Of a DNA stretch of 64,000 bases, positions 12,001 through 58,741 are shown piece by piece. The notes beneath the pieces were generated by a model. It was given only the letters and a program-made list of their open reading frames with translations, was not told the DNA's origin and did not search any database. The stretch lies in the NCBI GenBank assembly GCA_023138875.1, contig JAGLOO010000035.1, positions 1,722 through 65,721 of the forward strand, given 5' to 3'. Every line of letters begins with the position of its first letter. The stretch's first letter is position 1. The position numbers and the translations under genes were made by a program. This stretch comes from Bacteroidales bacterium. GTDB lineage: Bacteria; Bacteroidota; Bacteroidia; Bacteroidales; GCA-2748055.

Positions 12001-15000
12001 TCCACGGTTGTTGATCTGGTGGTCAATGAAAGGCCCGGGATCGTTACCCAGCCGGTGGATGTAACCACCTGTGAGGGCATTGCTGCCGCCTTCTCCATGA
12101 ACGCGGGCGTAACCACCAATCCGGGTTACCTGTGGCAATACCACGGCGGTGTGACATGGTTGCCGGTGACCGGAGTACAGTACAGTGGTCAGGGTACCAA
12201 TACCCTGAACATCCTGAATCCTGTTTCGGCCATGAACGGGTATGCATTCCGGGTCATTGTTACAGGATACTGCGATCCGTTTGTGATATCCGACAGCGTG
12301 ATATTCACCGTGGAAGAGAATGCCGAGGTAATCCAGCAGCCTGTGTATGCCAGCATTTGTGAAAACGGGGATACTATCTTTACGGTGAATGCCGGGGTAA
12401 CCACCAATCCGACTTTCCAGTGGTATTACAACGACGGTGTAAGCGGATGGCTGGCGGTGACTGCCGATGGCGTACATGCCGGGTTCCTGACCAACACCCT
12501 TGTGTTGAACAGTGTGCCATGGAGCATGGACAACTGGCTGTACCGTGCTGAGGTGAGCGGGGATTGCGGATCGACAGTGATCTCCGATCCGGCCGGACTG
12601 GTGGTATACAAACTGCCTGAAATTGTTGCACAACCGGTTGATACTACTACCTGCGAACTGCTCAATGTCTCGTTCACCGTGGATGTGGGCGATACGGATG
12701 CACCCTTCCTGCAGTGGGAAGAGAATGATGGTGTAAGCGGATGGCAGTTGCTGAGCGATGGCGGGAACTACATCGGTACCAACTCCACCGAACTGAAGGT
12801 CTACGCCGTGGATTCGGCCATGACCGGATTCAGGTACCGCGTAAGCGTCCGGGGTGAGTGTGATCCGGAGGTGATCTCCGGTGAAGTAACGCTGACTGTC
12901 CAATCGGCTCCTGATATCTGGACCCAACCGGTGGATGAGACCATCTGTGAAGGCGATAATACCAGCTTTAGCATATTTGCCACGGGTACCGGCATTACTT
13001 ACCAGTGGCAGGTGGATGCAGGAAGCGGATTTACAGATATAACCGGTTCCAACGGCGGAGTATATGCCGGATGGGACTCCAATACCCTGGTGCTGACCGG
13101 GGCTGACCGTACTTTCAACTTTAATAGATACCGGATACGTGTTGAAGGTACCTGTGTACCCATGACCCTCTCCAACCTGGCTATTCTGTTCGTGCAGACC
13201 CCGCCGGAGATCCAGACCGAACCGGTGGACAACACCATCTGCGAGTTCGAAAATGCCGTCTACTCTGTTAATGCAACGGGTGAAGGACTCTCCTACCAGT
13301 GGCAGGAAAGTACCAATGGAGGCGGGAACTGGAATGTGCTTAGCGATGTAGGATTCTACATTGGCTCAGCCACACCCACACTGAGCGTTTTCAATGTGGA
13401 ACGCGGCTACGACGGTTACATGTACCGTGTGATCATTACGGGTGCATGTGGCGTTCCAGCCCAGTCGGTGGATGTGAACCTGACCGTGAGAACTGCTCCG
13501 GAGATCCTGACCCAGCCGGTGGCGCTGACCGCCTGTGAGAACCTTCCGGCCGGCTTTGGCCTTGAAGCGCAGGGAACAAACATCATCTACCAGTGGCAGG
13601 TGAATGAAGGAACCGGTTTCAATAACATCCTTTTGACCGATCCGCTCTACACCGGGGCCGATACGGACAGCCTTACCCTGCTCAGCGCGCAGCCAGCCCA
13701 GGCCGGATACAGTTTCCGGGCTATTGTGACGGGTGACTGTCCCCCTGCGGCTATTTCCAACCCGGTGATCATGCTGGTGAATGCCAACCCGGTGATCACG
13801 AGCGATCCGGTGGATGATGCAATCTGTGAGGACGGATCAACAGTATTCAGTGCCGGTGCAACCGGACCTGAACTGGTTTACCAGTGGTATGTGGACCGCA
13901 ATGACGGGAATGGATTTGTGGTGCTGACCGATGATGCGGTGCACCTGGGATCCAATACGGATCAGATAAATCTGACCAGTGTACCGGTGACGATGGACGG
14001 ATGGCAGTACCGGCTGGATGTGTTCAGTGTATGCATGCCCATCTCAACGGCGGTGGTGACCCTGACCGTTTGGCCCAATCCGACGTCATCCATATTGGGA
14101 GATCTGCCCAATTATCCGTTGATATGCGGTGGAGATCTGCTTACCCTCGACGGGAATCCATCCGGTGGATCGGGCACCTGGTCCCTGCACCAGTGGACCG
14201 GGGATATCGGACCACTCTCTGCCATCAATGAGCAGGTGGTTGAGTTTGAAACCCTCATCAAGGGTCAGTACAACCTGGCCTATCGCGTAACGGACGACCG
14301 CGGATGCGTGGGAACCGATGTGGTGACCATTGAAAATGACAGGCCAACGGCCCAGTTCAGTTCCGATGCAGTTCCATCATGCGGTTACATTGAGGTGAAC
14401 TTTATCAATAACTCTACCGCCGATGCGGTAACATTCCTGTGGGACTTCGGTGATGGTACAACCAGTACCCAGGAGGATGTGAGTCACGGATTTGATAATG
14501 TTGATCCGGGGGGACTGGTGGCATATTACCATGTGAAGTTGATTGCCAGCAGCGTGAACAGCTGCAGGGATACGGCGCAAAGTGTGATTACCATCTATCC
14601 CAAGGTGGTTGCTACCATCGACGCTGATACGACAGAGGGGTGTCATCCGCTGGCTGTGACCTTCCTGACCCAGCCCGGCGGTGCAAGCTACTACTGGGAC
14701 TTCGGTGACGGCAATGCAGAAGACGGAGGTTATCTGGCCCACCACCTGTATGAGAACTATACCACTGCGGCGGTAACCCGTACGGTTGAGCTTACAACCA
14801 CTTCGTTCTACGGTTGCCAGGATTCCGAGACGCTGGATATTACGATACAGCCCATTCCGGCACCCAATTTTACAGCGGTTCCGCTGGTACAGACCTATCC
14901 GGACGCTACGGTAGCCTTCACCAATGAAACAACTCCTGGTCCGTGGACCTACCTGTGGGACTTCGGTGATTCCCTCTCATCAACCGAGGAGAATCCGACA

Positions 15001-41973: not shown

Positions 41974-43200
41974 ATACGCATAACGCATAACGCAACTTGC
42001 GTAATAAATAATATATAACTATCTTTACACAAAAAGTGTAAATGAATCCATTTTTATTAAAGGGGTATAAAAGCCCGGAGTATTTCTGTGATAGGGAAGC
42101 AGAAACAGAAACAATCCTCAGAGCAATCAAAAATCAGCAGGATATCACCTTATTTGCGGTTCGAAGAATCGGTAAATCAACATTACTTCACCATGTTTTT
42201 TTTAATTTAAAGAAGGAATTTGATTGTATCTATGCTGATATTTGGGGAACTACCTCTCTTAATGGATTCATTACTGAAACGGCAAACGCAGTTATTCAAA
42301 GCTCAGTATTCTCAAAAAGAAGTATTGGTAGAAAACTGACGGACTTTATAAAATCTATTGGTGCTTCTTTAAGTGTGGGAGTTGACGGAAAACCTTCTCT
42401 AGATATCATGTTCCACGATAAACAACAGGTTTTTAACAGATTGGAAGAGATTTTTATGCTTTTAGAGAACAATAAATTACCGGTAATTCTTGCTTTTGAT
42501 GAATTTCAGGAAATTAAAAATTACTCTGACGGGGTGCCGCTTGAAGCAAAATTGAGGAGTTTAGTACAAAAATATCAGAATATCAGATTTATTTTCAGTG
42601 GTAGTGAACAACATCTTCTGGCAGATATTTTTTCCGATTTACGTAAACCGTTTTATCAATCCACACGAATGATAGAATTGAAGAAAATAGCGGATGAGGA
42701 TTATCAAAACTTTATTCTTAATCACTTTTTAAAAGGGAAAAAGCGAATTAAGGATCAAATTATTGGTTATATATTATCTATTTGTCATGGACATACTTAT
42801 TATATTCAGGCCATCTGCAATTTCCTTTACAGCCAAACCAAAATGCCTGAATCCATTGCTGAGTTTGAAAGACTATATCTTGAATTCATTGCTGAAAAAC
42901 GAGTTTTTTACAGTGAGCTTCCCCAGCGATTAACAAAGCACCAATTCACAACCGTTAAAGCCATTGCCCGTAAAGGCGGTGTTAAAAGTCCAACTTCGGC
43001 TGACTTCATTAAGGAGGCTGAAGTAAATGGAGCAAGCAGCATGCAAAGGATATTAAAGGCTTTAAGAGAAAAACAGGTTATTATCAAAGATCAGGATTCA
43101 TATCGTTTATATGATGTTTTTCTTGAACACTATCTAAAATATATTGTTTGACCAGATCCAATCTAATCAAAACACCAGTGTACTAAACCGAATAACCAAC
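41967..43200 (+). mobile_element. Putative inserted gene cassette (AAA ATPase) bracketed by the 54-bp direct repeats; no recombinase inside
   Basis: The segment between the repeats is visibly AT-rich and holds one gene. Copy 2, read in the lnt frame, encodes VFLTVILLLYSVVIRYIRK plus a stop, which is a displaced alternative lnt 3' end. Confidence 0.4.
42042..43151 (+). CDS. AAA+ ATPase of the archaeal-ATPase/DUF234-like family with a C-terminal wHTH
   Basis: The N-terminus reads NPF...Y.SPEYFCDRE.E. Walker A is VRRIGKSTLL and Walker B is ILAFDEFQE. The C-terminal segment looks like a winged helix (TTVKAIARKGGVKSP...MQRILKALREKQVI). Confidence 0.8.
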   Translation: MNPFLLKGYKSPEYFCDREAETETILRAIKNQQDITLFAVRRIGKSTLLHHVFFNLKKEFDCIYADIWGTTSLNGFITETANAVIQSSVFSKRSIGRKLTDFIKSIGASLSVGVDGKPSLDIMFHDKQQVFNRLEEIFMLLENNKLPVILAFDEFQEIKNYSDGVPLEAKLRSLVQKYQNIRFIFSGSEQHLLADIFSDLRKPFYQSTRMIELKKIADEDYQNFILNHFLKGKKRIKDQIIGYILSICHGHTYYIQAICNFLYSQTKMPESIAEFERLYLEFIAEKRVFYSELPQRLTKHQFTTVKAIARKGGVKSPTSADFIKEAEVNGASSMQRILKALREKQVIIKDQDSYRLYDVFLEHYLKYIV

Positions 43201-43254
43201 TGTGTTTCTGACCGTTATCCTGCTTCTTTACAGTGTGGTGATCAGGTATATCAG
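43201..43254 (+). repeat. Direct repeat copy 2 (displaced lnt 3'-end fragment)
   Basis: See copy 1. It lies 34 nt upstream of the WYL regulator's ATG. Confidence 0.9.
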
Positions 43255-43287
43255 AAAGTAGCACTGCAATGCTATAGTCCAAGGAAA

Positions 43288-43983
43288 ATGAAACGAATTG
43301 AACGTCTAACTGGTATCATAACTTTCCTTCAATCAAGGAATTATACACCCATTGAAAGACTGATTGACAAATTCAATGTGAGTGAAAGAACAATTTACAG
43401 GGATATGGTTTCACTTCATGAGATTGGAGTCCCGATAACATATGAACAAAGCCACGGGTATTATATTCTCGATGATCACTTTATTCCACCTGTTTCATTC
43501 TCGGAAGAAGAGGCCGTGGCCCTGACACTGGCGGGCAGATTAATGAAAAGGTTTTCAGACAATAAGACCAATGAACATTTTGACAATGCGCTTGATAAGA
43601 TTAAATACGCCCTTAGTTCCCGGCAGAAAGAGATTATCGAAACAATCACCGATACAGTCAGGTTCCCTGCACTTGAATCAAGAAGCAATACAGAGAACCA
43701 TCTATATGCGGTTCAGAATGCGATCATTAAAAAGCGGATCCTGCATATTACTTATTTAAACAGACTGGATGAACTGTCTGAAAGAGAGATTGAACCTATT
43801 GGGCTCACTTTCTACTCGAATCAGTGGCACACCATTGCATTTTGCTGGAAAAGAGAAGCCTACAGGGACTTTATTATTTCCAGTATCCAGCAAATCAATA
43901 GCACATCAGTATCGTTTCGAAAACCGGATCACATTACACTGGATGAATATATCCTGGAACTGATAAATTCTTCAGGGCCCTGA
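43288..43983 (+). CDS. YafY-family transcriptional regulator (HTH plus WYL domain)
   Basis: The HTH reads MKRIERLTGIITFLQSR.YTPIERLIDKFNVSERTIYRDM..L.E.GVPI. The WYL block reads ILHITYLNRLDELSEREIEPIGLTFYSNQWHTIAFCWKREAYRDF. The track's upstream extension (43144) is created by the duplicated lnt fragment and was trimmed. Confidence 0.85.
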   Translation: MKRIERLTGIITFLQSRNYTPIERLIDKFNVSERTIYRDMVSLHEIGVPITYEQSHGYYILDDHFIPPVSFSEEEAVALTLAGRLMKRFSDNKTNEHFDNALDKIKYALSSRQKEIIETITDTVRFPALESRSNTENHLYAVQNAIIKKRILHITYLNRLDELSEREIEPIGLTFYSNQWHTIAFCWKREAYRDFIISSIQQINSTSVSFRKPDHITLDEYILELINSSGP

Positions 43984-44039: not shown

Positions 44040-44297
44040 ATGAAAACTTACAGAAACTGCCAAAGCTGCGGAATGCCGATGAAAAAAGATCCTCAGGGTG
44101 GCGGAACAGATTCAGACGGTTCCCGGAACCCGAAATTTTGTAGTTATTGTTATGTATCCGGGGCTTTTGTCCAGCCTGAAATGACAGTGGATGAAATGAA
44201 AGTCCTTGTTAAAGGAAAAATGATAGAGATGGGATTCCCAAAATTCCTTTCAGGTTTCTTCACCAAAGGCATCCCAAAACTTGAACGATGGAAATAA
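44040..44297 (+). CDS. Putative zinc-ribbon domain protein
   Basis: C.SCGMPM......GG.......N..FCSYCY..G.F....T..EM is the pattern of the small 'putative zinc ribbon' family. Confidence 0.65.
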   Translation: MKTYRNCQSCGMPMKKDPQGGGTDSDGSRNPKFCSYCYVSGAFVQPEMTVDEMKVLVKGKMIEMGFPKFLSGFFTKGIPKLERWK

Positions 44298-47090: not shown

Positions 47091-50000
47091 ATGCAATTAA
47101 GTCGAAAATTTCTCTTGCCGGTATCTATATCTGTACTGCTATTCTTCATTCAGCCAGGTGCATTTGCATTTAACGGATATTCCCCTCCCGATACAACCAA
47201 AGCACATCATATCTATACGAAAGCTATTGAGAAGTATGAAGAGGGTGATCTTTCTGAGGCTATAGGAATGTTTGATGACGCAGCCAGGCAGTTCAGGAAA
47301 AAAAAGATGTGGGAAAGGGTGATTGATTGTCACCTGTACATAATCAAAGCCAGGAGTTTGAATGCAGATGAGGAGGGGCTTATCGACTTCTGCAGGGCGA
47401 CTCAGGAATTATCTGAGGAGAAGCTTGGAGAAGACCACCCGGTTACAGGAGATTGCCACAACAGGCTTGGAGAACTTTACTACTATGGGCATCAGCATGA
47501 CCTGGCAAAGAAAAGCTTTGAAAGTGCCATGAAAATCTACTCCTGTGATCCGGGTCCTGAATCATTGGCTATGGCAAAGCTTTATTCAAATATGGGAGGA
47601 TTGAAAATGAATCTTTCTGAATACGACAGTGCAAAGATCTTTATTCAAAAGGCACTCGATATACAATTGGAACTGCTTGATACACTGGATATAAAATTAT
47701 TGCACACCTATAATACATATGGGATTTTGCACTATTATCTGGGGAATATGGACCAGGCCATTGACAATTTCGATAAGACTTTACAAATTCGACTTAATAA
47801 ATATGGAGAAACCCACCACGAGGTTGCTAAGAGCTACAATAACCTTGGTAGTGCCTATGAGAAAAAGAAGGCGTTTCAAAGGGCAGTGGACCTTCATCAA
47901 AATGCATTGAATATCCGCAGGACTACGCTTGATAGCCTGCATCCAAATATTGCATTGTCATTGAATAACCTCGCGAATGCCTGGTTCGGTCTGGGCGAAT
48001 ATGAAAAATCGAACGAATACCATTTTGAAGCATTGCGGTTAAGAAGAAGGATCTTTGGCGACGATCACAGAGATATCGCCATGAGTTATGCAAACATTGG
48101 ACATAATTTGCTCCTGCAGGACGATCCGGTTCAAGCAACATACTATTTCAGGAAGGTAGTCCCCATCATGATCAACCTTTACGGAACTGATCATCTGTTA
48201 ACCTCGGATGCATACGCAAACACAGGATTACCTTTCTACTATACCGGTGCGTATGACAGTGCATTCCATTACCTGTTCAAGGCGCTGAGGATCAGGGAAA
48301 ATATTCAGGATGGCATCAATTTGAGTGTGGCCAGGAGTTATAATAATATCGGAGCCCTGTATAAAGAAAACCGTGATTACGAGCTCGCGTTATCCTATTA
48401 CAACAAAAGTGCTGAGATCTATGAAATCCTTCTCGGTGAGAATTGTAATCCTTTGGCCGGATCCTATAATAACATAGGGGAAGTATACCTTGAAACAGGC
48501 GACTTGGATATATCTTATGATTATTTCAGGAAATCATTGGATATTGACATTTCGAATTTCGGTCCCGATAATCCTCAGTTGGCCGGCAGATACCTTAATC
48601 TGGGAGCGGTAGCTGCCGAGATGGGCAGACATGCAGAATCAATTGAATATAATAAAAAGGCCCTGAAATACCATGTAAGCGCTTATGGTGAGAATAACAC
48701 GCTGGCCAGCTCTATCTATAGCAATATGGCCATGGATTATGTTGAGATGGATAGCCTTGATATAGCTTTGGAATACCTGGACCATGCCATTGACATACTA
48801 AAAGAGATCCATGGCGAAAACCATTTTGGCCTCTCCTCTCATTATACAAAACTGGGACAAGTACTGGCAGATATTGGTGAAAATGAGGAAGCTTTGAAGA
48901 TTTTTCTGAAGGGATTGTCGGTTAATTATTTCGGGGAAATAGATGTGGCTAACCTGGAGGATACGGATACTGAAAAGATAAAGGACAAAAACCGGTTTAT
49001 TGAATCCCTGGTTGCCATCACCGAGTTTAATAAGTCACAACTCTCTGAAAATGATAGAAGTAAGCTGCTGGCAAAGAACCTGATTCTTTACGAACTTATC
49101 GCCGATATTACTGTAAAACTCCGGGAGACATACAAGTTGGAAATATCGAAGTTACAAGCTTTAAATGAGTGGGATTACCTCTATTCGAAAGCCTTTGAAA
49201 CAGCAGCCGGCTTGTATGAAATAACTGGTGATGAGCTTGATTTCAATAAAGCATTTCGTTTTGCAGGCCTGAAGAAGAGTTCCGCTTTAACTGATGCAAT
49301 TCTTATGAGCCAGGCGATGGAGAATTCAGGTATTCCTGATACTGTTGTCCTCGCAGAAAAATCCCTTCATTCAAGATTGGAAGGGCTAAGGCAAAACCTT
49401 CTTGAAACAGACAACACCGATGTTGCAGGTGACAGGATCAAGACAATTGAAAACGAGATAAACAGCACAACCATCAAGCTAAATGAGTTATATATTTTCA
49501 TCGAGAAGGAGTATCCGGATTACAACAACCTTAGATCCCGTTATCCTGAATATATGCCTGCAGAGATCAGTGAATTATTGGATAACAAAACTCTGTTGCT
49601 TGATTTTATTGTTGTCGAATCTTCCGTTTATTCACTGGTAATAAGCAAAAAAGGCAGGTGGCTTGAAAAAGCAGAGGTACCGGCAGATTTCAATGTCAGG
49701 GTGAACGACCTTCTCAGATCGGTGAAGAAATATCGAACAGGAGACTTCATTTCTCAATCAAAGGAGGTTTACAACATGCTGCTACAACCCCTGGAAAAAC
49801 ATTTCACGGGAATTGAAAAAATCATTACAATCCCGGATAGTTATCTGCTCTTATTGCCATTCGACATATTGATCAATAGTGAGAATACAGAGAACAACCT
49901 TGACCTGACATCCCAGGACTATCTCATTAAACGGTTCGAAACTGTTTCACACTACTCCACCGACCTGTGGGTAAGATCTTACCATAAAAATCATACTGAA

Positions 50001-50741
50001 AGCACAGTTGATTCATGCTTTTCAGGATTCCTTGGATTCGCTCCAGTATTTGATGCCAGCCCGGATAATCAGGAGGTTATCATGACTGAACGAGGCTCTT
50101 TATATACCGACAGGGCCGTGGTAGACAGGATGTCACTGCGGGAACTGCCTTTTTCCGGGCAGGAGATTGATACTCTCGTGTCTCTGTTTTCCCGACATGG
50201 AATAGAGGCCAGGGGAGTGTTAAGATCCGAAGCTACTGAAGAGATGTTCAGGGCATCCTCAGGGAACTATAAGTATGTCCACCTCGCAACTCATGGATTG
50301 ATAAATCCTGAAAAACCGGAACTATCAGGACTGGTTTTCTGGAAAGAGACCGTTGATACTATTGGTGATATGTCACAATTACTTATAGCCGAGAAAGAGA
50401 ATGACGGGGTGCTCTATACAAAGGAGATCTATAACCTTGATCTGAATGCCAGCCTGGTTACACTTAGCGCATGTGAAACAGGTGCCGGTAAGCTGGTAAA
50501 AGGGGAAGGGTTGCTGTCATTTGTTCGGGGATTCACCTATTCGGGGATTCCCAACATGTTGATCTCCTACTGGAAAGTTAATGATAAAACCACTGTAGAT
50601 TTTATGTATGATTTCTACGAGGGAGTACTTTCGGGAGACTCATACTCAGCGGCTTTAAGAAAGGCTAAACTTGCTGCCATATCAAACAAATCCACATCAT
50701 TCCCCGCCTCGTGGGGAAACTTTGTTCTTATCGGAAACTGA
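47091..50741 (+). CDS. Exported tetratricopeptide-repeat protein with C-terminal CHAT (caspase-like) protease domain
   Basis: The N-terminal signal peptide is MQLSRKFLLPVSISVLLFFIQPGAFA. About 550 aa of TPR units follow (recurring A.SYNN[IL]G..Y....Y..A..Y). The C-terminal CHAT domain has a His/Cys dyad context YVHLATHG and LVTLSACETG. Confidence 0.85.
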   Translation: MQLSRKFLLPVSISVLLFFIQPGAFAFNGYSPPDTTKAHHIYTKAIEKYEEGDLSEAIGMFDDAARQFRKKKMWERVIDCHLYIIKARSLNADEEGLIDFCRATQELSEEKLGEDHPVTGDCHNRLGELYYYGHQHDLAKKSFESAMKIYSCDPGPESLAMAKLYSNMGGLKMNLSEYDSAKIFIQKALDIQLELLDTLDIKLLHTYNTYGILHYYLGNMDQAIDNFDKTLQIRLNKYGETHHEVAKSYNNLGSAYEKKKAFQRAVDLHQNALNIRRTTLDSLHPNIALSLNNLANAWFGLGEYEKSNEYHFEALRLRRRIFGDDHRDIAMSYANIGHNLLLQDDPVQATYYFRKVVPIMINLYGTDHLLTSDAYANTGLPFYYTGAYDSAFHYLFKALRIRENIQDGINLSVARSYNNIGALYKENRDYELALSYYNKSAEIYEILLGENCNPLAGSYNNIGEVYLETGDLDISYDYFRKSLDIDISNFGPDNPQLAGRYLNLGAVAAEMGRHAESIEYNKKALKYHVSAYGENNTLASSIYSNMAMDYVEMDSLDIALEYLDHAIDILKEIHGENHFGLSSHYTKLGQVLADIGENEEALKIFLKGLSVNYFGEIDVANLEDTDTEKIKDKNRFIESLVAITEFNKSQLSENDRSKLLAKNLILYELIADITVKLRETYKLEISKLQALNEWDYLYSKAFETAAGLYEITGDELDFNKAFRFAGLKKSSALTDAILMSQAMENSGIPDTVVLAEKSLHSRLEGLRQNLLETDNTDVAGDRIKTIENEINSTTIKLNELYIFIEKEYPDYNNLRSRYPEYMPAEISELLDNKTLLLDFIVVESSVYSLVISKKGRWLEKAEVPADFNVRVNDLLRSVKKYRTGDFISQSKEVYNMLLQPLEKHFTGIEKIITIPDSYLLLLPFDILINSENTENNLDLTSQDYLIKRFETVSHYSTDLWVRSYHKNHTESTVDSCFSGFLGFAPVFDASPDNQEVIMTERGSLYTDRAVVDRMSLRELPFSGQEIDTLVSLFSRHGIEARGVLRSEATEEMFRASSGNYKYVHLATHGLINPEKPELSGLVFWKETVDTIGDMSQLLIAEKENDGVLYTKEIYNLDLNASLVTLSACETGAGKLVKGEGLLSFVRGFTYSGIPNMLISYWKVNDKTTVDFMYDFYEGVLSGDSYSAALRKAKLAAISNKSTSFPASWGNFVLIGN

Positions 50742-50747
50742 TTTGTC

Positions 50748-51290
50748 TCAGAACCGGTATCCAACTTTAATCCCGGCTTTATCCATGTAGGCCTTAGGAT
50801 CAAAGAAAAGAAATACACCCCTGGTAGCTGAAATACCGACATAGAAATCCCTAATAAAATACTGGAAGGATACCTCAACCGCCCAATAGGACCAGATCTC
50901 ATTATAATCATCAGGAAATAACACATCATAAAGAAAGTTCAGCTGGAATCTGAAATTCTTTGAGAAATGAAGCATATATGACGGCGAGAGACCCAGGAAG
51001 AACCTGTTTTTCTCCGGATGACTCCAACCATCACCCGTAAGAACATACTCGCGATAAAAACCGGTACGTACACCGGCATAAAAGCGGTGATCTCCAAAAC
51101 CGAAAATGTCCCGCTCGTAACCAATGGAAAAGTCAGGATTGGAAGTATAATACTTCTCAGTTCCTCTTTTTTCAAGGTGATGATTCAGAAGTATGAATAC
51201 ATTGTTCTTCTGAAGGTATTCTTCCTTTGGCTGCCCTGTGGCAGTCTGGAAAAGAAAAACGAAGATGAGTATGACCGGTATCTTCTTCAT
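50748..51290 (-). CDS. Small exported protein, outer-membrane beta-barrel-like (hypothetical)
   Basis: It has a signal peptide, alternating aromatic/Gly strands and a C-terminal ..GIKVGYRF with terminal Phe. Confidence 0.55.
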   Translation of the reverse strand: MKKIPVILIFVFLFQTATGQPKEEYLQKNNVFILLNHHLEKRGTEKYYTSNPDFSIGYERDIFGFGDHRFYAGVRTGFYREYVLTGDGWSHPEKNRFFLGLSPSYMLHFSKNFRFQLNFLYDVLFPDDYNEIWSYWAVEVSFQYFIRDFYVGISATRGVFLFFDPKAYMDKAGIKVGYRF

Positions 51291-51321
51291 GGTTATTGCT
51301 CTGATTTTGCTGTTTCAATAA

Positions 51322-51888
51322 TCAGTTGAGAATAAATCTGTATCCGATTGAAGCCGTTATCGGGAATAAACCGGTTTGAAACTCAGCACCATAGTCGTTC
51401 TCCAGGTGCTCTATATAATCATCGACCTCTGAACTTCTGATGGGCACAAATATGGCAAATGACCAATAGCCCCTTTTCAAAGGATTGAGGTGAAAGTCAA
51501 TCCCACCCCCCAGGGTGGGACCATAAAACAGTCTGTTGTGCTGCGATGCATTCAATACAGCTATGGCTGCATTGTATCCATACATGACCAGTCCAAATGG
51601 GTGAACTTTAGAATCAGGCTTATCAGGTACATACCTGAATTTCACACCTGCGTTAAATCCCACGCCGGCAAGGGCATACCCCACTCCACCAAACAGTCCG
51701 ACACTTTTAGCCGGATAATACGTCACATTTCCCCCAAAGCCTCCATAATCCAGCCCTCCGCCAATTCCGATTGATATCTGATCCAATTGCCTGGTTGTTT
51801 GAAATGGATATTGTATTGATGCATCTTGGGCATTTAGCTGAAATGCCAGCAGCAAGATCAATGCAGTAATTTTGAGGTTTCTCATCAT
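51322..51888 (-). CDS. Small exported protein, outer-membrane beta-barrel-like (hypothetical)
   Basis: It has a signal peptide, Gly/Tyr-rich strands (GGGLDYGGFGGNVTYY, GVGYALAGVGFNAGVKFRY) and the C-terminal SIGYRFILN. Confidence 0.55.
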   Translation of the reverse strand: MMRNLKITALILLLAFQLNAQDASIQYPFQTTRQLDQISIGIGGGLDYGGFGGNVTYYPAKSVGLFGGVGYALAGVGFNAGVKFRYVPDKPDSKVHPFGLVMYGYNAAIAVLNASQHNRLFYGPTLGGGIDFHLNPLKRGYWSFAIFVPIRSSEVDDYIEHLENDYGAEFQTGLFPITASIGYRFILN

Positions 51889-51927
51889 GCTTTTTTTAGG
51901 TTCAGTATTTATGTTTATAAGCCAGGT

Positions 51928-52581
51928 TCACCTGTTAAGTAAGTCAAACCTAACCATTATTTTTAATAATGTCCAACTGCTATTTAAGTCATTATCACCA
52001 AAAAAGTACCGGTAGGATGTTCCGACACCAATCAGATTCTGAAAGAAAAAAAAGTTTATTTCAGGTTCCACAAAGAACCCACCTTTGAACTTGAATTTCT
52101 CCACCTCACAGTCCTTACAATTTACAATCTCCTTCCGTCCGGAAAAACCTTCAAATCCAAAAGAGGTTCCTGCAGATACATTGAGATTCCGGTCTTTAAT
52201 CAATCCGAGCCCGGGTGTCCATATTCCGGCTTTGAAATCGTAGCTTAAGGTAGTAAACGAAGATTCTAATGTCCCCCAGGTTGTACTTTGTGTAAATGTG
52301 TTATAGTCTTTTATTCCTCCATACCCTAACGCACCAGAAATTCCTATCAAATGATATAATTTTGTGCATATCCCAATCTCGGTCATCCATGCTTTATTTG
52401 CAATATCCAGTTCATCAGATTTTCCATCCCTGATCGTTGTCATCGTAGGGGTTGTCATATACATGATAAACTGATGCTTTCCCCCATGTTCCTGGCATAA
52501 GGCATCGGGATGGATGGCGGACATTAAGAATATCAAAACATTCAAAAAAAGGATCCGGATTTCAGGTCTGGTATTCATCAT
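51928..52581 (-). CDS. Small exported protein, outer-membrane beta-barrel-like (hypothetical)
   Basis: It has an N-terminal hydrophobic leader and beta-strand periodicity. It is co-directional with its neighbours and separated from them by short gaps. Confidence 0.5.
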   Translation of the reverse strand: MMNTRPEIRILFLNVLIFLMSAIHPDALCQEHGGKHQFIMYMTTPTMTTIRDGKSDELDIANKAWMTEIGICTKLYHLIGISGALGYGGIKDYNTFTQSTTWGTLESSFTTLSYDFKAGIWTPGLGLIKDRNLNVSAGTSFGFEGFSGRKEIVNCKDCEVEKFKFKGGFFVEPEINFFFFQNLIGVGTSYRYFFGDNDLNSSWTLLKIMVRFDLLNR

Positions 52582-52692
52582 AGCTGTTCAGTTTTAAAGG
52601 TCAGTTTTCAACATTGCTTTCTTTTGATATGTTACGGGAATAGAAAACGTTACTTTAATCTGTACAACAATAAAGATAGTAACGGAATAGAT

Positions 52693-53451
52693 TTACCGGA
52701 TATAGATCTTTCCCGTGTGCAATGTCTCCTCATCATCGGTCAGTTGCCAGTAATACAAACCTTTTGGAAACTGCATGCAGATTATATAGGGTGAGGCTAT
52801 TTTGTCCTCGCGGAGAACTACGCCGCTGTTATTCAGGATTGCAAGAAATAGGGAATCGTTTTCCACTCCCCGAAATCTGACTTCAACAGATGAACCGGAT
52901 ATGCATTCGACACTGTCAGCTGGTGATTCCACTGTCAGATTACCAGAGCGTATATTAATCCCTATCTGGTTTTCATAGAAGGGATAAGCCTGGTATTCTG
53001 CCAGATATGTAATTTCCTTTTTTGGGATTATAATGACCTCCTCCTCACTTTTTTCAGTCAGGCCGGGAACATCATCCTCAGCTGGCTGAGGAGCCTTTAA
53101 TGTATCCGTTTGAATCTCTTCTAAAGCAATTTGAGAGGATCTGGATGGTGTGTCGCGGTTTGGAAGAAGGAAGAGTCCGACCACCAATGCTACACCTGCC
53201 GCGGCAGCAACATACCAGAAAATGAAAAAATGTTTTTTTAAGAGATCCCCTTTATGCCCACCAGTACGAAATGTTTCTCCGGCCGAATATTTCTGAATGG
53301 CATTGATGATCTCTTCCCTTTCCATCAGTTCGTTTCGGCATACAGCACAAGACAACAGATGCTCTTCAAAAATGACAGCCTCCTGATCTGATAACTCATT
53401 TCTGATAAACCTGTCAATCAATTCATCTCTATCTATCTTATTACAATCCAT
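52693..53451 (-). CDS. zf-HC2 anti-sigma factor with one TM helix and a C-terminal beta-sandwich resembling a T9SS type A sorting domain
   Basis: The zinc motif is EEHLLSCAVCRNEL and the TM is FFIFWYVAAAAGVALVVGLFLL. The last ~65 aa (VEVRFRG....LFLAILNNSGVVL.......PKGLYYWQL.......TGKIYIR) follow the strand pattern of the in-window type A CTD but lack its NPF motif. Confidence 0.7.
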   Translation of the reverse strand: MDCNKIDRDELIDRFIRNELSDQEAVIFEEHLLSCAVCRNELMEREEIINAIQKYSAGETFRTGGHKGDLLKKHFFIFWYVAAAAGVALVVGLFLLPNRDTPSRSSQIALEEIQTDTLKAPQPAEDDVPGLTEKSEEEVIIIPKKEITYLAEYQAYPFYENQIGINIRSGNLTVESPADSVECISGSSVEVRFRGVENDSLFLAILNNSGVVLREDKIASPYIICMQFPKGLYYWQLTDDEETLHTGKIYIR

Positions 53452-53473
53452 TGTCAGCAGCTATTTGATCTGT

Positions 53474-54340
53474 TCATTCCTTGATATGACTTTGTAGTTG
53501 CATGGCTTCAATCCTATGGCATATATCTGCAATTCTCCTGAGGGCATGATACTTTTTTAGTCTGCAATTGCCATCGGAGATATGAAGGGCTTTAGCAATG
53601 TTGGATAGTTTCTCTTCGTGGAAATAATAGTGTTTCAGTATATATCTTTCATCTTTCGAAATCGAATCATGCATGGCTTTTTCAATATAATAGTACCTGT
53701 CATCTGCCTCAGATCTTTCTTCTTCAAAAGGTGTCAGCAAATGGTCCAATTCCATCTCTGTCGATCTTTTGTTGTGCTGCATTTTCTTCCTGTAGTATTC
53801 AAAGGTTTTGAGTTCAAGTATCCTGAAATAGTAGGATTTAAATGCCCGGGAAGTTTCAAAACAGAGTTTTTTTGCTGCTATCTTCTCAACGAATGTCAGC
53901 ATCGATTCCTGAAAGATTTCTCTGGCAACATCGGCCACTATTTTCTTGTCTGAAAGCCATTTGGCTGCGTATATGAATAATCTTTCATTTACCCTCCTCC
54001 AGGCAACGCTATCATTCACTGTTATCAAATTGTAAAACCCCTTAAACTGACCTGTGACAATCTCATTGGTATACTTCAAAATTACCTCTTTGTACTCTTG
54101 GTATTTATCAATTCTCAGCTTTCCGGACAACACTTCATGTCTGAACCTTGAATAAACCTTCTTGATGATATATTCAGAATCTCCGATCCCATCTTCCGTT
54201 GCAATCCAACCTGTTTCTATCCTTTCACTCCTTGCCCACCTGGAAATAATAATTCCAATATGTGACCTTATGCTCAGCCACGTGTTTTCATTGAGACCCG
54301 TAAGCTCATTTATGACTGTATTGAAATCATCAAGTTCCAT
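53474..54340 (-). CDS. Sigma-70-family (ECF-like) factor with a ~125-aa N-terminal extension
   Basis: The region 2-like block is DVAREIFQESMLTFVEKI......F....AFKSYYFRILE. Region 4 is ISKDERYILKHYYFHEEKLSNIAKALHISDGNCRLKKYHALRRI. The first ~125 aa have no motif I recognise. Confidence 0.65.
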   Translation of the reverse strand: MELDDFNTVINELTGLNENTWLSIRSHIGIIISRWARSERIETGWIATEDGIGDSEYIIKKVYSRFRHEVLSGKLRIDKYQEYKEVILKYTNEIVTGQFKGFYNLITVNDSVAWRRVNERLFIYAAKWLSDKKIVADVAREIFQESMLTFVEKIAAKKLCFETSRAFKSYYFRILELKTFEYYRKKMQHNKRSTEMELDHLLTPFEEERSEADDRYYYIEKAMHDSISKDERYILKHYYFHEEKLSNIAKALHISDGNCRLKKYHALRRIADICHRIEAMQLQSHIKE

Positions 54341-54642
54341 AAGGAGATGACAGATCTGGCTAAAATGTTAACACAAGCCGGCGAATGCTTTCTTGAGCCC
54401 GCATACCGGTCCTGTAGTTAAAGGTAGTAAATCAACTAATATCTTCATCCCGTTAACATCATATCGAATCTCTAAGGGGTATGTTCTCCATCGTTTGTGG
54501 TGGGTTAGTTCATTCTTAAGATAAAGCTTCATAGTCAATCGTGTGATTATTCTCTATATTTATATCCGGTAAGTACTACTGCTAGATCTTTATACGATTA
54601 GAAATGTCGTTGTTTCTATTCATTATATAACAAACCGATATC

Positions 54643-54880: not shown

Positions 54881-55480
54881 ATGAAAAAATTCAAAGAGAT
54901 CAAGCCCACTGAGATCACCGACAATGTATTCAAACTGCTTGACAAAGACTGGATGCTCGTAACAGCGGGTACCCTGGAAGATTACAACACCATGACTGCC
55001 AGCTGGGGTCACATGGGCATCCTCTGGAACCTGCCTGTGGCCATTGCCTACATCCGTCCGCAAAGACACACCTATGGATTCGCCAACAGGTACGGGGATT
55101 ATACCCTGTCCTTTTTTACCGAGGCATACCGCTCGGCTCTCCAGTTCTGCGGGACCAGGTCGGGCCGTGACTGCGACAAAGCGGCCGAGACGGGCCTTAC
55201 TGCAATCCAGACCCAAAGGGGAAATGTAATTTTCCAGGAGGCAAGGCTGGTACTGGAATGCCGGAAGATTTACGAAGACAACCTGAAAAAGAAAAACTTC
55301 CTCCTCCCCGAGGTAGCCAAAAAGAACTATCCCAAAAACGATTTCCACCGCTTCTACATGGGTGAAATAGTAAGAAAGAGGGAACGCTATTTCAACCAGG
55401 ATCTTCATCAACCATTGCAAGTTGATCCTTCGTTAGTTTCAAGCTATGAAATACCCGAGATTTTCCCTGGTGATGCTTAA
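54881..55480 (+). CDS. Flavin reductase-like (FMN-binding split-barrel) protein with an atypical C-terminal tail
   Basis: The sequence MKKFKEIKP.EI.DNVFKLL.KDWMLVTAGT...YNTMTASWG..G.LWN.PVA..YIRPQR.TY.F matches the Bacteroidota flavin reductase family. After FYMGEIV the last ~30 aa are unrecognisable and overlap the antisense defence-gene remnant. Confidence 0.8.
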   Translation: MKKFKEIKPTEITDNVFKLLDKDWMLVTAGTLEDYNTMTASWGHMGILWNLPVAIAYIRPQRHTYGFANRYGDYTLSFFTEAYRSALQFCGTRSGRDCDKAAETGLTAIQTQRGNVIFQEARLVLECRKIYEDNLKKKNFLLPEVAKKNYPKNDFHRFYMGEIVRKRERYFNQDLHQPLQVDPSLVSSYEIPEIFPGDA

Positions 55481-56406
55481 TCATCTTTCTATTAAACCCA
55501 AGCTTTGTAACCAGAACTTCATCCGGACGACACTCTACATGAACCACTTTCATAGATTGAGAATTCTGATCATTATTCAACTTTGTGACAATGGTCTGGT
55601 AATCTTCCATCTGGGTAATAAAAACATTAAGGTCTTCAATTTTTGACTTCTCAATAAGACTAAGTAACAGATATGGATTATGCGTTGTTATGAAAAATTG
55701 ATTCGTTTCATCCAATGCTATTCTTTCTGCGAGGAATTTTGTGTAGAATGGAAATGTATTGCTATCCGGTTCGTCGAAGAGTATCAGGCTTTCTTTATTG
55801 CTCTTTATTGCTATTGTATAAAAGATAATTCTCTGTTGGCTTGATTGTCAGTGTTAATTCTTTGGATTTTAGGAACTCTGAAACCCACTTTTTGTATTCC
55901 TTATTTGATAATAGAAGGGATGGCAGATTTTCTCCGTATGGAACAGAAAGATGAGGCATATAATCATATGAAAAACTGGAAAGTCTCTTATATTCGTACA
56001 GATGAACATTGGTGCGCCCCTGATTACCCTAATCCTGAACCTTTCCATCATGTAACAAGATAGCCGGCCGTTCTACAGATTCCACGAAATCCAGGAAGAA
56101 ATGGAATTGATTCTCCGGGGTGCCATCCTCACGAACAGCATATTTAAGCATGGTATTGCGATCACCGGTTTTAACCTCAATAGGCAGATTGATATCAAAA
56201 TCGTAGAATAGGTCTCCAATTGTCTTATATCGGAACATCTGATTATTGAGAGTTTCCCCAAGTGTATTTTGACTCTGTAGAGATAATGCCTCGATAATAT
56301 TACTCTTCCCACCATTAGGTTCACCAATGAAAACATTTAACTTCTTACAGGATATTGATAAATCCTTAATTGATTTGAAGTTTCTTATGGTTAAATCGTT
56401 TATCAT
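55392..56406 (-). pseudogene. Disrupted ABC/AAA_15-21-type ATPase with a truncated Toprim (DUF4435-like) tail; OLD/PARIS-like defence remnant
   Basis: The N-terminal fragment (56406-56029) is MINDLTIRNFKSIKDL......LNVFIGEPNGGKSNIIEAL, containing Walker A. It ends in a stop. The C-terminal fragment, in another frame (55847-55392), is SSQQRIIFY....ESLILFDEPDSN.....FITTHNPYLL, then MKVVHVECRPDEVL...GKSRVF.....LAMVDEDPG (E...D.D Toprim-like), cut off at the flavin reductase gene. Confidence 0.65.
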
Positions 56407-56570: not shown

Positions 56571-57119
56571 TTGACGATAAAATACGAGGAAATACACAGG
56601 GATGTGATCGAATCGTGCATGAAAGGTGATGTTCGGGCGCAGTACCAGTTATACAGTCTCTATTCAAAGGCCATGTATAACATCTGTTACCGGATGACCG
56701 GACAGCAGGAGGAGGCGGAAGACATGCTTCAGGAATCTTTTTCCTATGCTTTCAGAAAACTGGGTTCTTTCAGGTTTGAGTCTTCCTTCGGAGCATGGTT
56801 GAAGCGCATTGTTGTGAATACCTGTATCAATCACCTTAAGAAAAGAAAGGTGGACCTCGTATACACGGACCAACACAACGATCCGGCACCAGATGACGAT
56901 TTTGTCGATTACGGAGAAATCCGGCTGCGGGCGGAAGGGGTGATGAAGGCAATGGGGAAGTTATCCCAGGGCTACCGGATCGTATTCTCTCTCTATCTGC
57001 TCGAGGGGTATGACCACAAGGAGATCTCGGAGATAATGGGTATTTCCGAATCGACCTCGAAAAGCCAGTTTTTAAGAGCTAAACAAAAAATTAAGGAAAT
57101 CTTGATGAGCCATGAGTGA
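56571..57119 (+). CDS. ECF-type RNA polymerase sigma-70 family factor
   Basis: Region 2 is AEDMLQESFSYAFRKL.SFR.ES.FGAWLKRIVVNTCI. Region 4 is GYRIVFSLYLLEGYDHKEISEIMGISESTSKSQFLRAKQKI. The start codon is uncertain (TTG 56571, or a downstream ATG). Confidence 0.88.
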   Translation: MTIKYEEIHRDVIESCMKGDVRAQYQLYSLYSKAMYNICYRMTGQQEEAEDMLQESFSYAFRKLGSFRFESSFGAWLKRIVVNTCINHLKKRKVDLVYTDQHNDPAPDDDFVDYGEIRLRAEGVMKAMGKLSQGYRIVFSLYLLEGYDHKEISEIMGISESTSKSQFLRAKQKIKEILMSHE

Positions 57120-57657
57120 CAGGTTAGAAGAATTTGTGAAGCAGCACCGGGAACAGTTTGATCTCCACGAGCCGGATCCATCCATCTGGTTGAAGATCAA
57201 TCCTGCCAATGCACCCGTTGTGAGGGAACATAGGCCGATGCGTTGGTTATGGGTGGCAGCTGCCATTGCGGTAATCTTTACAGGGTTCACAGCAGGCATC
57301 TATTTCCTCACAGGAAGTAATGCTGGCGAGGATCTGTACAGCAGCAAGCTGTTTATGGAGATCCGGGAAACCGAACAGTATTACAGCCGGATGGTTTCCC
57401 AGCGTTACGATGAACTCAGGCCCTACCTGGCAAGTGATCCGGTTGCTGAAGAGATGCTCACGGCCGACATGGAAGAACTGGATGAGGTCTATAACGAGTT
57501 GAAGAATGATCTGAAGGACAATGTATCAAACTCCGAGGTAATCGAAGCGATGATACTTAATTACAGGGTGAAACTGGAGATTCTGGAAGACCTGCTTAAT
57601 CAATTAAACGAAAAGGAGAATCAAGATTATGAGAACAATGAATCATATTCTCTATAA
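57112..57657 (+). CDS. ECF-associated membrane protein (anti-sigma-like)
   Basis: It overlaps the sigma gene stop by 8 nt. The N-terminus reads F..HEPDPSIWLKI, followed by the TM segment WLWVAAAIAVIFTGFTAGIYF and an acidic coiled-coil tail. Confidence 0.6.
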   Translation: MSDRLEEFVKQHREQFDLHEPDPSIWLKINPANAPVVREHRPMRWLWVAAAIAVIFTGFTAGIYFLTGSNAGEDLYSSKLFMEIRETEQYYSRMVSQRYDELRPYLASDPVAEEMLTADMEELDEVYNELKNDLKDNVSNSEVIEAMILNYRVKLEILEDLLNQLNEKENQDYENNESYSL

Positions 57658-58741
57658 ACCCGCACAGCTACTTTTCCTGCTGGCACTGATGCTGGGGACT
57701 TCTGTCTCCGCCCAGAGTCACACGGACAAGCGCAGTGTGAGCAGGAGTTTTCCTGCGTCACGAGAGACAACCCTGGAGGTTCAGAATAAATACGGGAAGA
57801 TACAGATAGTCACATGGGAAAAGGATTCCGTTGCGGTGGATGTGGATATCTACCTGACCGAGTCCAGTGCCTCCAAACTCAGGAAACTGAAAGAGGACAT
57901 TCGCATCAACTTCACAGGAACCAAAACCTTTATCATTGCCAAAACCACCATCGAGAGTGAAAGCGGACGGCTGGCCTCCGAGTTAAAAAACATTAGCAAT
58001 ACCATTACCGGAACGAACAAACAGGTTGAGATCAATTATATGGTGCATGTACCGGAGTACATGGACGTGGTCCTGCAAAACAAGTTCGGGGATATCTATA
58101 TGGACGACCTGAGCGGTCAGGTAGACATTAAATTGTCCAATGGAGTGCTGAAGGCCAACCGGCTGGAGGGAAACTCATCCATAGCACTCAGTTTTGCCAA
58201 CGGGATGATCAAATCCCTGGGCTCAGCCACAATGAAGCTTTCCTACTCCGACCTGGTGCTGAGTGAGGTGAACCAGCTTGACCTGAACAGTAAATCTTCC
58301 AAGCTGAATGTGGATAAGGTGAATGTGCTGAAGATCAATTCACGGCGCGATAAACTATATTTCAAGGAGGTGGAGTATTTCTATGGGAAAAGCAATTTCA
58401 CCCAGGTCTGGGTTTACGATTTCATCAGGGAGTGCGATGTTTATATGAAATACGGGAAGCTGACCATTGAGCATGTACAGCCCGATTTCACCAAGATCTA
58501 TGTGGAATCGGACTATACCGATATAACACTCTATTTCGACAGGGAAACTGCGTTTGCATTTGACATCCTTCACCACGAAAAGTCGGTATTGAGATTGCCA
58601 GGTGATGTGGCGACCCCGGAGGAGACATTTGACGGGAAGAACCACTTTCAGACCGTGGGTAAGATAGGTGAAGGAGAACCGGTGGGCCGACTGAATATTG
58701 ATGCCCTGCAAAAGTGTTATATCAACATCTCTATCAAGTAG
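57629..58741 (+). CDS. DUF4097-like beta-strand-repeat ('putative adhesin') exported protein
   Basis: It has a signal peptide and repeated ..G.I.[IV]... strand units (VQNKYGKIQIVTWEKDSVAVDVDI, LQNKFGDIYMDDLSGQVDIKLSNG). This family commonly follows Bacteroidota ECF/anti-sigma pairs. Confidence 0.6.
   Translation: MRTMNHILYKPAQLLFLLALMLGTSVSAQSHTDKRSVSRSFPASRETTLEVQNKYGKIQIVTWEKDSVAVDVDIYLTESSASKLRKLKEDIRINFTGTKTFIIAKTTIESESGRLASELKNISNTITGTNKQVEINYMVHVPEYMDVVLQNKFGDIYMDDLSGQVDIKLSNGVLKANRLEGNSSIALSFANGMIKSLGSATMKLSYSDLVLSEVNQLDLNSKSSKLNVDKVNVLKINSRRDKLYFKEVEYFYGKSNFTQVWVYDFIRECDVYMKYGKLTIEHVQPDFTKIYVESDYTDITLYFDRETAFAFDILHHEKSVLRLPGDVATPEETFDGKNHFQTVGKIGEGEPVGRLNIDALQKCYINISIK

Follow-up and report, generated by a model that had tools for sequence, protein, structure and literature searches.

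What does an exported caspase-like protease do beside a sigma factor and its presumed antagonist in the inner membrane? This question is raised by positions 47091-54340 of a 64,000-nucleotide stretch of DNA from a Bacteroidales bacterium (GenBank assembly GCA_023138875.1, contig JAGLOO010000035.1), the whole of which we call the window and in whose own numbering positions are given. In this locus a gene for an N-extended sigma factor of the extracytoplasmic function (ECF) type is followed by a gene for a zf-HC2 anti-sigma factor and by three genes for small secreted proteins, and a gene for a large protein that joins tetratricopeptide repeats (TPR) to a CHAT domain converges on them from the other strand. 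The first-pass annotation of this DNA had proposed that the TPR-CHAT protein is the site-1 protease of the anti-sigma factor. Our comparisons strongly support the view that the core of the locus is the triad of sigma factor, anti-sigma factor and TPR-CHAT protein, the coupling of which is conserved far beyond close relatives, and we consider it highly probable that the three form one functional module.

The six open reading frames (ORFs) listed in that annotation were recovered with every coordinate matching exactly:

47091-50741, plus strand: TPR-CHAT gene, 1216 residues (ORF call; Pfam TPR_12 in eight stretches, 6e-78; CHAT PF12770 over residues 891-1216, 1.5e-56, 192 bits against a cut-off of 24)
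50748-51290, minus strand: sm180 gene, 180 residues (ORF call)
51322-51888, minus strand: sm188 gene, 188 residues (ORF call)
51928-52581, minus strand: sm217 gene, 217 residues (ORF call)
52693-53451, minus strand: anti-sigma gene, 252 residues (ORF call; Pfam zf-HC2)
53474-54340, minus strand: sigma gene, 288 residues (ORF call; NCBIfam TIGR02937)

Taken in order from sigma to sm180, the minus-strand genes are separated by gaps of 22 (between sigma and anti-sigma), 111, 39 and 31 nucleotides. The stops of TPR-CHAT and sm180 lie tail to tail, and the spacing of 6 nucleotides given for them earlier is borne out at the sequence level.

Conservation of the triad

The first-pass annotation had made its proposal depend on the recurrence of the convergent arrangement in other genomes, and such recurrence was indeed found. 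A sigma-anchored set of 21 loci (L001-L021), comprising L001-L005 and 16 loci obtained by scanning one genome per species with a sigma alignment, was mapped with the six window proteins. In L001-L005, where the sigma factors are 48-51% identical to that of the window, the same six-gene block is present and the gene beyond CHAT varies (Lnt in some, a BNR protein in others); the 16 further loci all lie in Bacteroidales metagenome-assembled genomes (MAGs) and have sigma identities of 26-50%. The order of sigma gene, zf-HC2 anti-sigma gene and convergent TPR-CHAT gene was observed in 19 of the 19 loci with enough downstream DNA, over a range of sigma identity of 26-51%. In the distant clade (sigma identity 26-34%) the stops of the CHAT and anti-sigma genes lie no more than some tens of nucleotides apart, and the small genes have moved or are gone. 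Therefore, the triad is the unit that was kept by selection.

Another anchor was taken from the ectodomain of the anti-sigma factor, whose motif GLYYW[QK]L-x3-[DE][EQ]-x4-[GA]K was back-translated to a degenerate DNA pattern and scanned over metagenome contigs. The scan yielded 69 loci, and 68 of the 69 motif-bearing ORFs match the anti-sigma profile. A TPR-CHAT gene is convergent in 41 of these loci, co-directional and directly downstream in six (one of which was confirmed by Pfam at 6e-41) and lacking in eight, the other 14 loci being too short to judge. The protease gene is thus found next door in 47 of the 55 assessable loci (85%), or in 37 of 43 (86%) after clustering of the ectodomains at 80% identity, and the median stop-to-stop gap is about 12 nucleotides. 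The same triad is present in KSB1 (L095), in Acidobacteriota (L024) and on the long contigs L096 and L097. The gene upstream of the motif ORF is always sigma-like and belongs to one of three length classes, of about 190 residues (plain ECF), about 250 residues and about 280 residues (the window type). Since the class of the sigma factor varies, the ectodomain and the CHAT protease are the constant partners. In a reverse test anchored on CHAT four contexts were sampled; in Rhodocytophaga a gene for a plain 184-residue ECF factor is followed by one for a 228-residue protein with a single transmembrane (TM) helix, convergent on CHAT, and in an Acidobacteriota MAG a gene for a zf-HC2/TM protein is likewise convergent on CHAT.

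The three partners

The predicted parts of the three proteins are as follows:

TPR-CHAT, residues ~1-26: signal peptide
TPR-CHAT, residues ~100-610: TPR array
TPR-CHAT, residues ~620-890: helical region
TPR-CHAT, residues 891-1216: CHAT caspase-like domain
50292-50294, plus strand: codon of the predicted catalytic His1068 (HLATHG), invariant in 15 aligned orthologs (H432 of alignment A2)
50472-50474, plus strand: codon of the predicted catalytic Cys1128 (LSACETG), invariant in orthologs (C492 of alignment A2)
Anti-sigma factor, residues 8-62: zinc-binding anti-sigma (ZAS)/zf-HC2 domain (H31, C35, C38)
Anti-sigma factor, residues 73-95: TM helix
53005-53166, minus strand: extracytoplasmic disordered linker of the anti-sigma factor, residues ~96-149 (~50 residues), the proposed site-1 cleavage region (from the predicted local distance difference test, pLDDT, of an AlphaFold2 model; role by analogy with the linker of Myxococcus xanthus DdvA)
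52696-53004, minus strand: anti-sigma ectodomain, residues 150-252, an eight-stranded immunoglobulin (Ig)-like beta-sandwich that defines the family (pLDDT, Foldseek, hhalign)
54011-54340, minus strand: helical N-terminal extension of the sigma factor, ~110 residues
53477-54010, minus strand: sigma2, disordered linker and sigma4 of the sigma factor

The TPR-CHAT protein looks exported and catalytically competent. Its N-terminus, MQLSRKFLLPVSISVLLFFIQPGAFA/FN, is built like a Sec signal peptide, and the hydrophobic N-terminal segment is kept in orthologs: N-termini resembling signal peptides occur in every full-length ortholog of the sigma-anchored set and in 12 of the 13 complete metagenomic CHAT ORFs, for which GTG and TTG were allowed as starts besides ATG. 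The His1068/Cys1128 dyad is invariant across all complete orthologs. The signal peptide and the intact dyad of the first-pass annotation, the latter read from HLATHG and LSACETG, are thus corroborated, and the objection it had raised against its own proposal, namely that CHAT might turn out to be cytoplasmic or dead, is contradicted by these N-termini and catalytic residues as far as the sequence can tell. Searched at full length against PDB sequences, the protein finds TPR proteins only; a profile of its C-terminal 580 residues recovers at least 929 homologs across Bacteroidota, Ignavibacteriales, KSB1 and Acidobacteriota.

The anti-sigma factor matches zf-HC2 (PF13490) with 27.4 bits against a cut-off of 22.2 and contains a single TM helix, a feature of 21 of 21 orthologs, which agrees with its earlier description as a single-pass zf-HC2 anti-sigma factor. 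The residues H31, C35 and C38 of the H-x3-C-x2-C pattern are invariant in 50 family members, as is GLYYW. In representative loci the gene upstream is a sigma factor gene, and the protein presumably binds and inhibits this cognate sigma factor. The AlphaFold2 model, built from a 50-sequence alignment (pLDDT 74.7), predicts a helical ZAS domain at residues 8-62, a TM helix at residues 73-95, disorder at residues 102-148, where pLDDT falls below 50, and an eight-stranded beta-sandwich at residues ~150-252, where it exceeds 90. The tether is acidic and rich in proline, and its sequence and length vary across the family. When the anti-sigma factors of the window and of an Acidobacteriota genome are aligned, a C-terminal module of about 100 residues is conserved, with GLYYWQLTDDEETLHTGKI (GLYYWQL...GK) in the window protein and GLYYWKLEDKENLYHVGKF in its Acidobacteriota counterpart. 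No Pfam model covers this ectodomain, and PF18962 (Por_Secre_tail) gave no match at E <= 0.1. A word-indexed search found at least 338 clusters of the anti-sigma family at 90% identity, and an exhaustive HMMER search with clustering at 50% identity found 510 clusters at E<=1e-30 and 1,451 at E<=1e-10, nearly all of 215-340 residues. The triad delineates a sizeable, so far unannotated anti-sigma family with a dedicated protease partner.

A Foldseek search with the sandwich returned generic FN3/Ig folds together with the C-terminal domain (CTD) of a type IX secretion system (T9SS) substrate, 8glk_D (TMt 0.68). Comparison by hhalign of the ectodomain family with seven genuine T9SS CTDs that stem from the same loci gave a probability of 86.7% (E 4e-6, 55 columns). 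Reversed and column-shuffled controls gave at most 0.4%, whereas the signal persisted after re-ordering (81%) and with distant members only (72%). The ectodomain resembles the C-terminal sorting domains of T9SS substrates, maybe only at the level of fold or superfamily, and this likeness suggests a possible link of envelope secretion to sigma-factor control. A sorting function is doubtful, because the anti-sigma factor is anchored in the inner membrane.

The sigma factor passes the TIGR02937 sigma70-ECF model narrowly, with 44.1 bits against a cut-off of 42.9 over residues 118-270; in Pfam, Sigma70_r4_2 reaches 22.9 bits, under its cut-off of 25.7, and Sigma70_r2 was not detected. The sigma family comprises 32 proteins, all of ~288 residues and with 48-83% identity, and the N-terminal extension of ~110-115 residues is conserved in all 20 aligned relatives, so the earlier reading of an N-extended sigma-70/ECF-like factor stands. 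The AlphaFold2 model (pLDDT 80.9) predicts a helical extension at residues 3-107, sigma2, a disordered linker at residues 192-215 and sigma4. The top Foldseek matches of this model are all ECF sigma factors (SigL, sigmaE, SigH, BldN, CnrH, SigW), at weak E-values of about 2e-3, and no recognisable relatives of the extension were found by sequence and structure searches. Among named homologs, those nearest to the sigma and anti-sigma factors (P0003 and P0158; 81-83% identity) carry the label of a 'Methanosarcinaceae archaeon' MAG; the contig bearing this label is probably mis-binned, because all other evidence is that of Bacteroidales.

The proposed mechanism, its alternatives and its relatives

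In canonical regulated intramembrane proteolysis (DegS/RseA/RseP; PrsW/RsiW/RasP) a signal-activated site-1 protease removes the ectodomain of the anti-sigma factor, and a site-2 protease then releases the ECF sigma factor. The triad is similar in having a single-pass anti-sigma factor whose extracytoplasmic part would, as we propose, need removal at site 1, and the combination of a single TM helix, a disordered linker and a folded ectodomain provides the geometry needed for such cleavage. The difference lies in the enzyme: canonical site-1 enzymes are PDZ serine proteases or membrane metalloproteases, whereas the candidate in the triad is a caspase-like cysteine protease of clan CD, which carries a large TPR array as sensor and is encoded beside its presumed substrate. 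On the simplest reading, the triad is a three-component switch for envelope signalling. In the proposed mechanism the resting anti-sigma factor would hold the sigma factor at the inner membrane, and the periplasmic TPR-CHAT protein would recognise, or dock on, its beta-sandwich. A ligand or protein bound by the TPR array would activate the protease, which would then cut the disordered tether, thus performing site-1 cleavage in trans; the remaining stub would become the substrate of an RseP-type site-2 protease and the sigma factor would be freed. In this Bacteroidales clade the sigma factor would then probably drive its own operon, including the genes of the three small secreted proteins. We assign the role of TPR-CHAT as the site-1 protease of the anti-sigma factor a probability of about 50%, and we infer the cleavage itself, the position of the cut, the signal and the content of the regulon.

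Several observations weigh against this mechanism. CHAT, being usually convergent, is usually not co-transcribed with the sigma and anti-sigma genes, and the conserved elements found upstream of the sigma genes (see below) were not shown upstream of CHAT or of the small genes, so that no promoter motif common to them was established. In the family alignment the tether shows no conserved motif to suggest a cleavage site. The site-1 role is hypothetical even for DdvA (PMC11506125). CHAT is missing from eight of the 55 assessable motif loci (15%), and the two other contexts sampled from the CHAT side do not contain the triad: in Ekhidna lutea (L025:6001-9538, FZPD01000007.1) the gene for a secreted TPR-CHAT protein is followed by a co-directional gene for a three-TM LytTR protein, and in an Ignavibacteriales MAG (L022) neither a sigma factor nor a regulator is encoded near CHAT. 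The former context hints that TPR-CHAT proteases partner with other membrane-tethered transcription regulators too. In favour of the mechanism, a secreted S8 subtilase with a T9SS tail occupies the place of CHAT at L038 (Ga0209516_1000376), which fits a protease as required partner of the anti-sigma factor. At L032 and L061 a PKD/T9SS protein and then an M16 peptidase are found, without CHAT; the neighbours at these three loci may represent protease swapping.

One would argue that the coupling is real but reversed or non-proteolytic, and the linkage data fit such a scheme equally well. TPR-CHAT would then bind the ectodomain in the manner of CnrX or RseB and serve as a sensor or co-receptor; alternatively, the ectodomain would be a securin-like tethered pseudosubstrate or inhibitor of CHAT, in which case the true substrates of CHAT would be other envelope proteins and the release of the sigma factor would report the engagement of CHAT. 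TPR arrays are protein-binding scaffolds, and separase, a relative of TPR-CHAT, is held by a pseudosubstrate inhibitor (PMC11506125). Additionally, the most conserved part of the anti-sigma factor is the beta-sandwich and not the tether, which suggests that recognition outweighs a particular cut site. However, the catalytic dyad, being invariant in all orthologs, argues that proteolysis is essential, and a disordered tether between a TM helix and a folded domain is the classic geometry of a site-1 substrate; we therefore regard a non-proteolytic or reversed coupling as possible, though on the unlikely side. It could also be that TPR-CHAT is the output, the sigma factor switching on CHAT and the small proteins, the anti-sigma factor sensing alone and CHAT acting on proteins of the envelope or of foreign origin, for instance in the course of defence or programmed cell death. 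ECF sigma factors often control adjacent genes, CHAT proteases serve as effectors in several conflict systems, and in the six loci where CHAT is co-directional and directly downstream of the anti-sigma gene it probably belongs to the same operon. DdvS, the sigma factor that pairs with DdvA, controls a defence island containing CHAT effectors (PMC11506125). Yet CHAT is convergent in 41 of the 47 positive loci, with stops usually 0-30 nucleotides apart, and therefore needs a promoter of its own, while no promoter like the sigma-upstream element was found at CHAT and no PADLOC model matches the six proteins beyond generic TPR. The protease is moreover tied to one ectodomain family as the sigma type changes, and this points to a periplasmic partnership and not to promoter control. 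Thus it is not likely that CHAT is an effector of the sigma factor. Least probable by far is that there is no functional link and that the adjacency is the inherited synteny of related genomes: the flanks of the close clade (flavin reductase, second ECF module, Lnt) are syntenic too, but the triad stays while flanks and small genes change, recurs with different sigma classes, phyla and neighbours, and was recovered in 85% of the assessable loci by an anchor independent of CHAT.

The likeness of the ectodomain to T9SS sorting domains allows one more scheme. PorU, which cleaves off T9SS CTDs, is a C25 peptidase of clan CD, to which CHAT belongs as well. The anti-sigma factor resembles T9SS cargo in having a CTD-like domain and a clan-CD cysteine protease as the candidate cutter just upstream of it, but in the triad the domain hangs from a protein of the inner membrane instead of forming part of a secreted cargo. 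To our knowledge, Acidobacteriota are not known to have a T9SS, yet members of the ectodomain family occur in MAGs labelled Acidobacteriota. At long odds, the ectodomain could be a true T9SS-type sorting domain repurposed as a tethered decoy, with TPR-CHAT acting as a PorU-like remover of the CTD or with the T9SS machinery engaging the decoy. If this were true, the cutting or pulling of the tether would report the state of outer-membrane secretion or the presence of foreign periplasmic proteins, and the triad would be a caspase-gated, secretion-coupled sigma switch, loosely like FlgM export, widespread in the Fibrobacteres-Chlorobi-Bacteroidetes superphylum and beyond. For some of the very many TPR-CHAT proteins that are orphans in bacteria, the triad offers a concrete function in cell physiology. 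Since protease and presumed substrate are separate proteins here, the site-1 mechanism that we favour can be tested directly in trans, which is difficult with DdvA.

The first-pass annotation had called such a module not seen described, and this was overstated: DdvA of M. xanthus fuses the same parts (PMC11506125), and Craspase cleaves the sigma-binding Csx30. In DdvA (PDB 8rot and 8rw5) a ZAS domain and a TM helix are followed by a flexible linker, which adjoins the helix and is faced by the fused periplasmic TPR-CHAT part of ~900 residues; autoproteolysis in trans at site 1, ahead of RseP, has been proposed for its CHAT domain but not proven, and DdvA without TPR-CHAT becomes exposed to RseP (PMC11506125). 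Fusions of this kind have been reported only in Myxococcota and in one Comamonas (PMC11506125). DdvS/DdvA and the triad have in common an ECF sigma factor, an anti-sigma factor with an H-x3-C-x2-C zinc finger, a single TM helix and a flexible periplasmic linker, a periplasmic TPR-CHAT part with a His/Cys dyad, and the proposed logic in which CHAT acts at site 1 ahead of RseP. Contrastingly, TPR-CHAT has a convergent gene of its own in the triad and is exported through Sec as a separate protein, whereas in DdvA it is fused to the anti-sigma factor; the anti-sigma factor of the triad has a T9SS-CTD-like beta-sandwich ectodomain, which DdvA lacks; the distribution of the triad is broad (Bacteroidota, KSB1, Acidobacteriota; at least 510 clusters); and no defence island adjoins its locus. 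A fusion of the DdvA type was rejected for the window, the genes being separate here and in the 47 positive loci (41 convergent, six co-directional), with no fusion seen. Orthology of the CHAT domain to that of DdvA was rejected too, the similarity being marginal: the profile of the C-terminal 580 residues matches DdvA (8rot_B) in the PDB at E 0.26, over only ~80 residues around the Cys. We regard the triad as the counterpart of the DdvA fusion, split over two genes, and not as a member of the DdvA family.

No description of the split arrangement of sigma factor, anti-sigma factor and TPR-CHAT was found in the literature searched. What is new here is this split, widespread DdvA-like arrangement together with the newly delineated ectodomain family; the TPR-CHAT/anti-sigma switch itself has a precedent. 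The pairing of a periplasmic TPR-CHAT protease with an ECF sigma/anti-sigma couple, so far known only from the fused DdvA, thus recurs in Bacteroidota, KSB1 and MAGs labelled as Acidobacteria.

Craspase, the TPR-CHAT protease of type III-E CRISPR systems (Cas7-11 with the TPR-CHAT protein Csx29, Csx30, Csx31 and RpoE), cleaves Csx30, which binds the ECF sigma factor RpoE. It is like the triad in the genetic linkage of a TPR-CHAT protein with both an ECF-type sigma factor and a sigma-binding target. However, Craspase is cytoplasmic, RNA-guided and bound to Cas7-11, whereas the CHAT protein of the window has a signal peptide and no cas genes or CRISPR array beside it, and the anti-sigma factor of the window, a ZAS protein of the membrane, bears no relation to Csx30. 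The match of the window sigma factor to the III-E sigma model (E 0.028) is insignificant, no CRISPR-like array was found within the window, and no cas genes occur among the neighbours (Lnt, BNR protein, flavin reductase and similar). Membership in the Craspase (Csx29) group was rejected on these grounds. The actinobacterial group ECF54 has CHAT, subtilase or carboxypeptidase genes in its context, and proteolytic regulation was proposed for it (PMC8999054). It is like the triad in that an ECF sigma factor has a conserved neighbouring CHAT-domain protease, but it is without an anti-sigma factor, belongs to another phylum and sigma lineage, and its protease is thought to act directly on the sigma factor (PMC8999054).

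Small proteins, upstream elements and chromosomal setting

The three small proteins of the operon had been described as small, unrelated outer membrane protein (OMP)-like proteins. All three carry signal peptides and they are mutually unrelated according to hhalign, which upholds that part of the description; the OMP-like character is not matched by any Pfam or NCBIfam model, in searches up to E = 1, and PDB profile searches with sm180 and sm188 gave no matches. The C-terminus of sm180 is GYRF, an OMP-like end in F, that of sm188 is ...GYRFILN, and that of sm217 is ...DLLNR in the window and ends in F or Y in the distant clade. An otherwise variable region of sm217 holds a CxxC pair (C155 and C158; C-x-D-C) that is invariant in all homologs, which suggests a disulfide or a redox or metal site. 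Homologs of sm217 lie between the anti-sigma and CHAT genes in L001 and divergently upstream of the sigma gene in L007, L008, L010, L014, L016 and L017; sm188, which is rich in glycine, is found in the close clade only; and homologs of sm180 (53-83% identity) occur in both Bacteroidales clades. In the distant Bacteroidales clade the homologs of sm217 and sm180 are upstream of and divergent from the sigma gene, or absent, and no homologs of the small proteins were found at the triad loci mapped outside Bacteroidales. Contrary to the first-pass annotation, which had included them in the module, they are not part of its core; we take them for clade-specific accessories, possibly the output of the regulon.

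A scan for sigma-70 consensus promoters found 26 sites against 23.2 +/- 4.5 in shuffled sequence, which is no excess, and no convincing terminator was found between the convergent genes. Sigma genes of the close clade have a GT(T)AAC...CATATCCTT (TAAC...CATATCCTT) block just upstream of their start codons (window ~54341-54380). Those of the distant clade have another element ~40-80 nucleotides upstream, with a partial inverted repeat TTACAA/TTGTAA:

L017:9798-9967, L010:9735-9922 and L008:9655-9925: GTGTTACAAAAAGC...TTGTAATC element

Both are candidate autoregulatory promoters or operators.

The block had also been taken for an AT-rich accessory island. Its GC content of 0.406 is indeed below that of the left flank (0.44), the right flank (0.468) and the whole window (0.467). 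However, the right-hand edge is not sharp, because the GC content at 54-57 kb is also ~0.41, and other parts of the window are far more AT-rich than the TPR-CHAT block. Syntenic loci in other genomes have a GC dip of 2-7 points, as in the window; therefore, the dip is a stable property of these genes and not a sign of recent acquisition. The neighbourhood, consisting of Lnt, flavin reductase, a second ECF module, DsbD and RNase G, represents conserved chromosomal synteny. Given the unsharp edge, the shared dip and this synteny, a recently acquired AT-rich island is not supported, and the block is no demonstrable accessory island. Classification of the six-gene locus as a defence system was rejected as well, since the PADLOC models gave no meaningful match to the six proteins beyond generic TPR.

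Several other features of the window were noted:

42042-43983, plus strand: AT-rich gene pair (GC 0.34 and 0.40) for an ATPase_2/AAA_14 protein and an HTH-WYL regulator, downstream of Lnt
55392-55715 and 56029-56406, minus strand: short ORFs matching the C- and N-terminal parts of AbiL/OLD/GajA/PtuA-type defence ATPases (PADLOC AbiLi 8e-14)
56571-58741, plus strand: second, ordinary ECF module with a 182-residue ECF sigma factor (Sigma70_r2 9e-16, r4_2 1e-14)
112-15945, plus strand: giant ORF of 5277 residues, GC 0.52

The ATPase/WYL pair (42.0-44.0 kb) is accompanied by a small ORF at 44040-44297 and by the BNR gene, and in L001-L004 Lnt directly adjoins CHAT; it is this pair, and not the CHAT block, that looks like an insertion. 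The AbiL-like ORFs look like a broken or frameshifted gene for a defence ATPase; the DNA around them is AT-rich (GC 0.36-0.37), with the flavin reductase gene on one side and the following ECF module on the other. The second ECF module, which is syntenic with the CHAT triad in L001-L004, also encodes a 181-residue protein resembling a single-TM anti-sigma factor and a 370-residue secreted protein, the L001 counterpart of the latter having 295 residues and carrying DUF4097. The giant ORF contains an internal repeat (4171-6332) of 6.7 tandem copies of a 324-nucleotide (108-residue) unit and presumably encodes a huge repetitive surface or adhesin-like protein.

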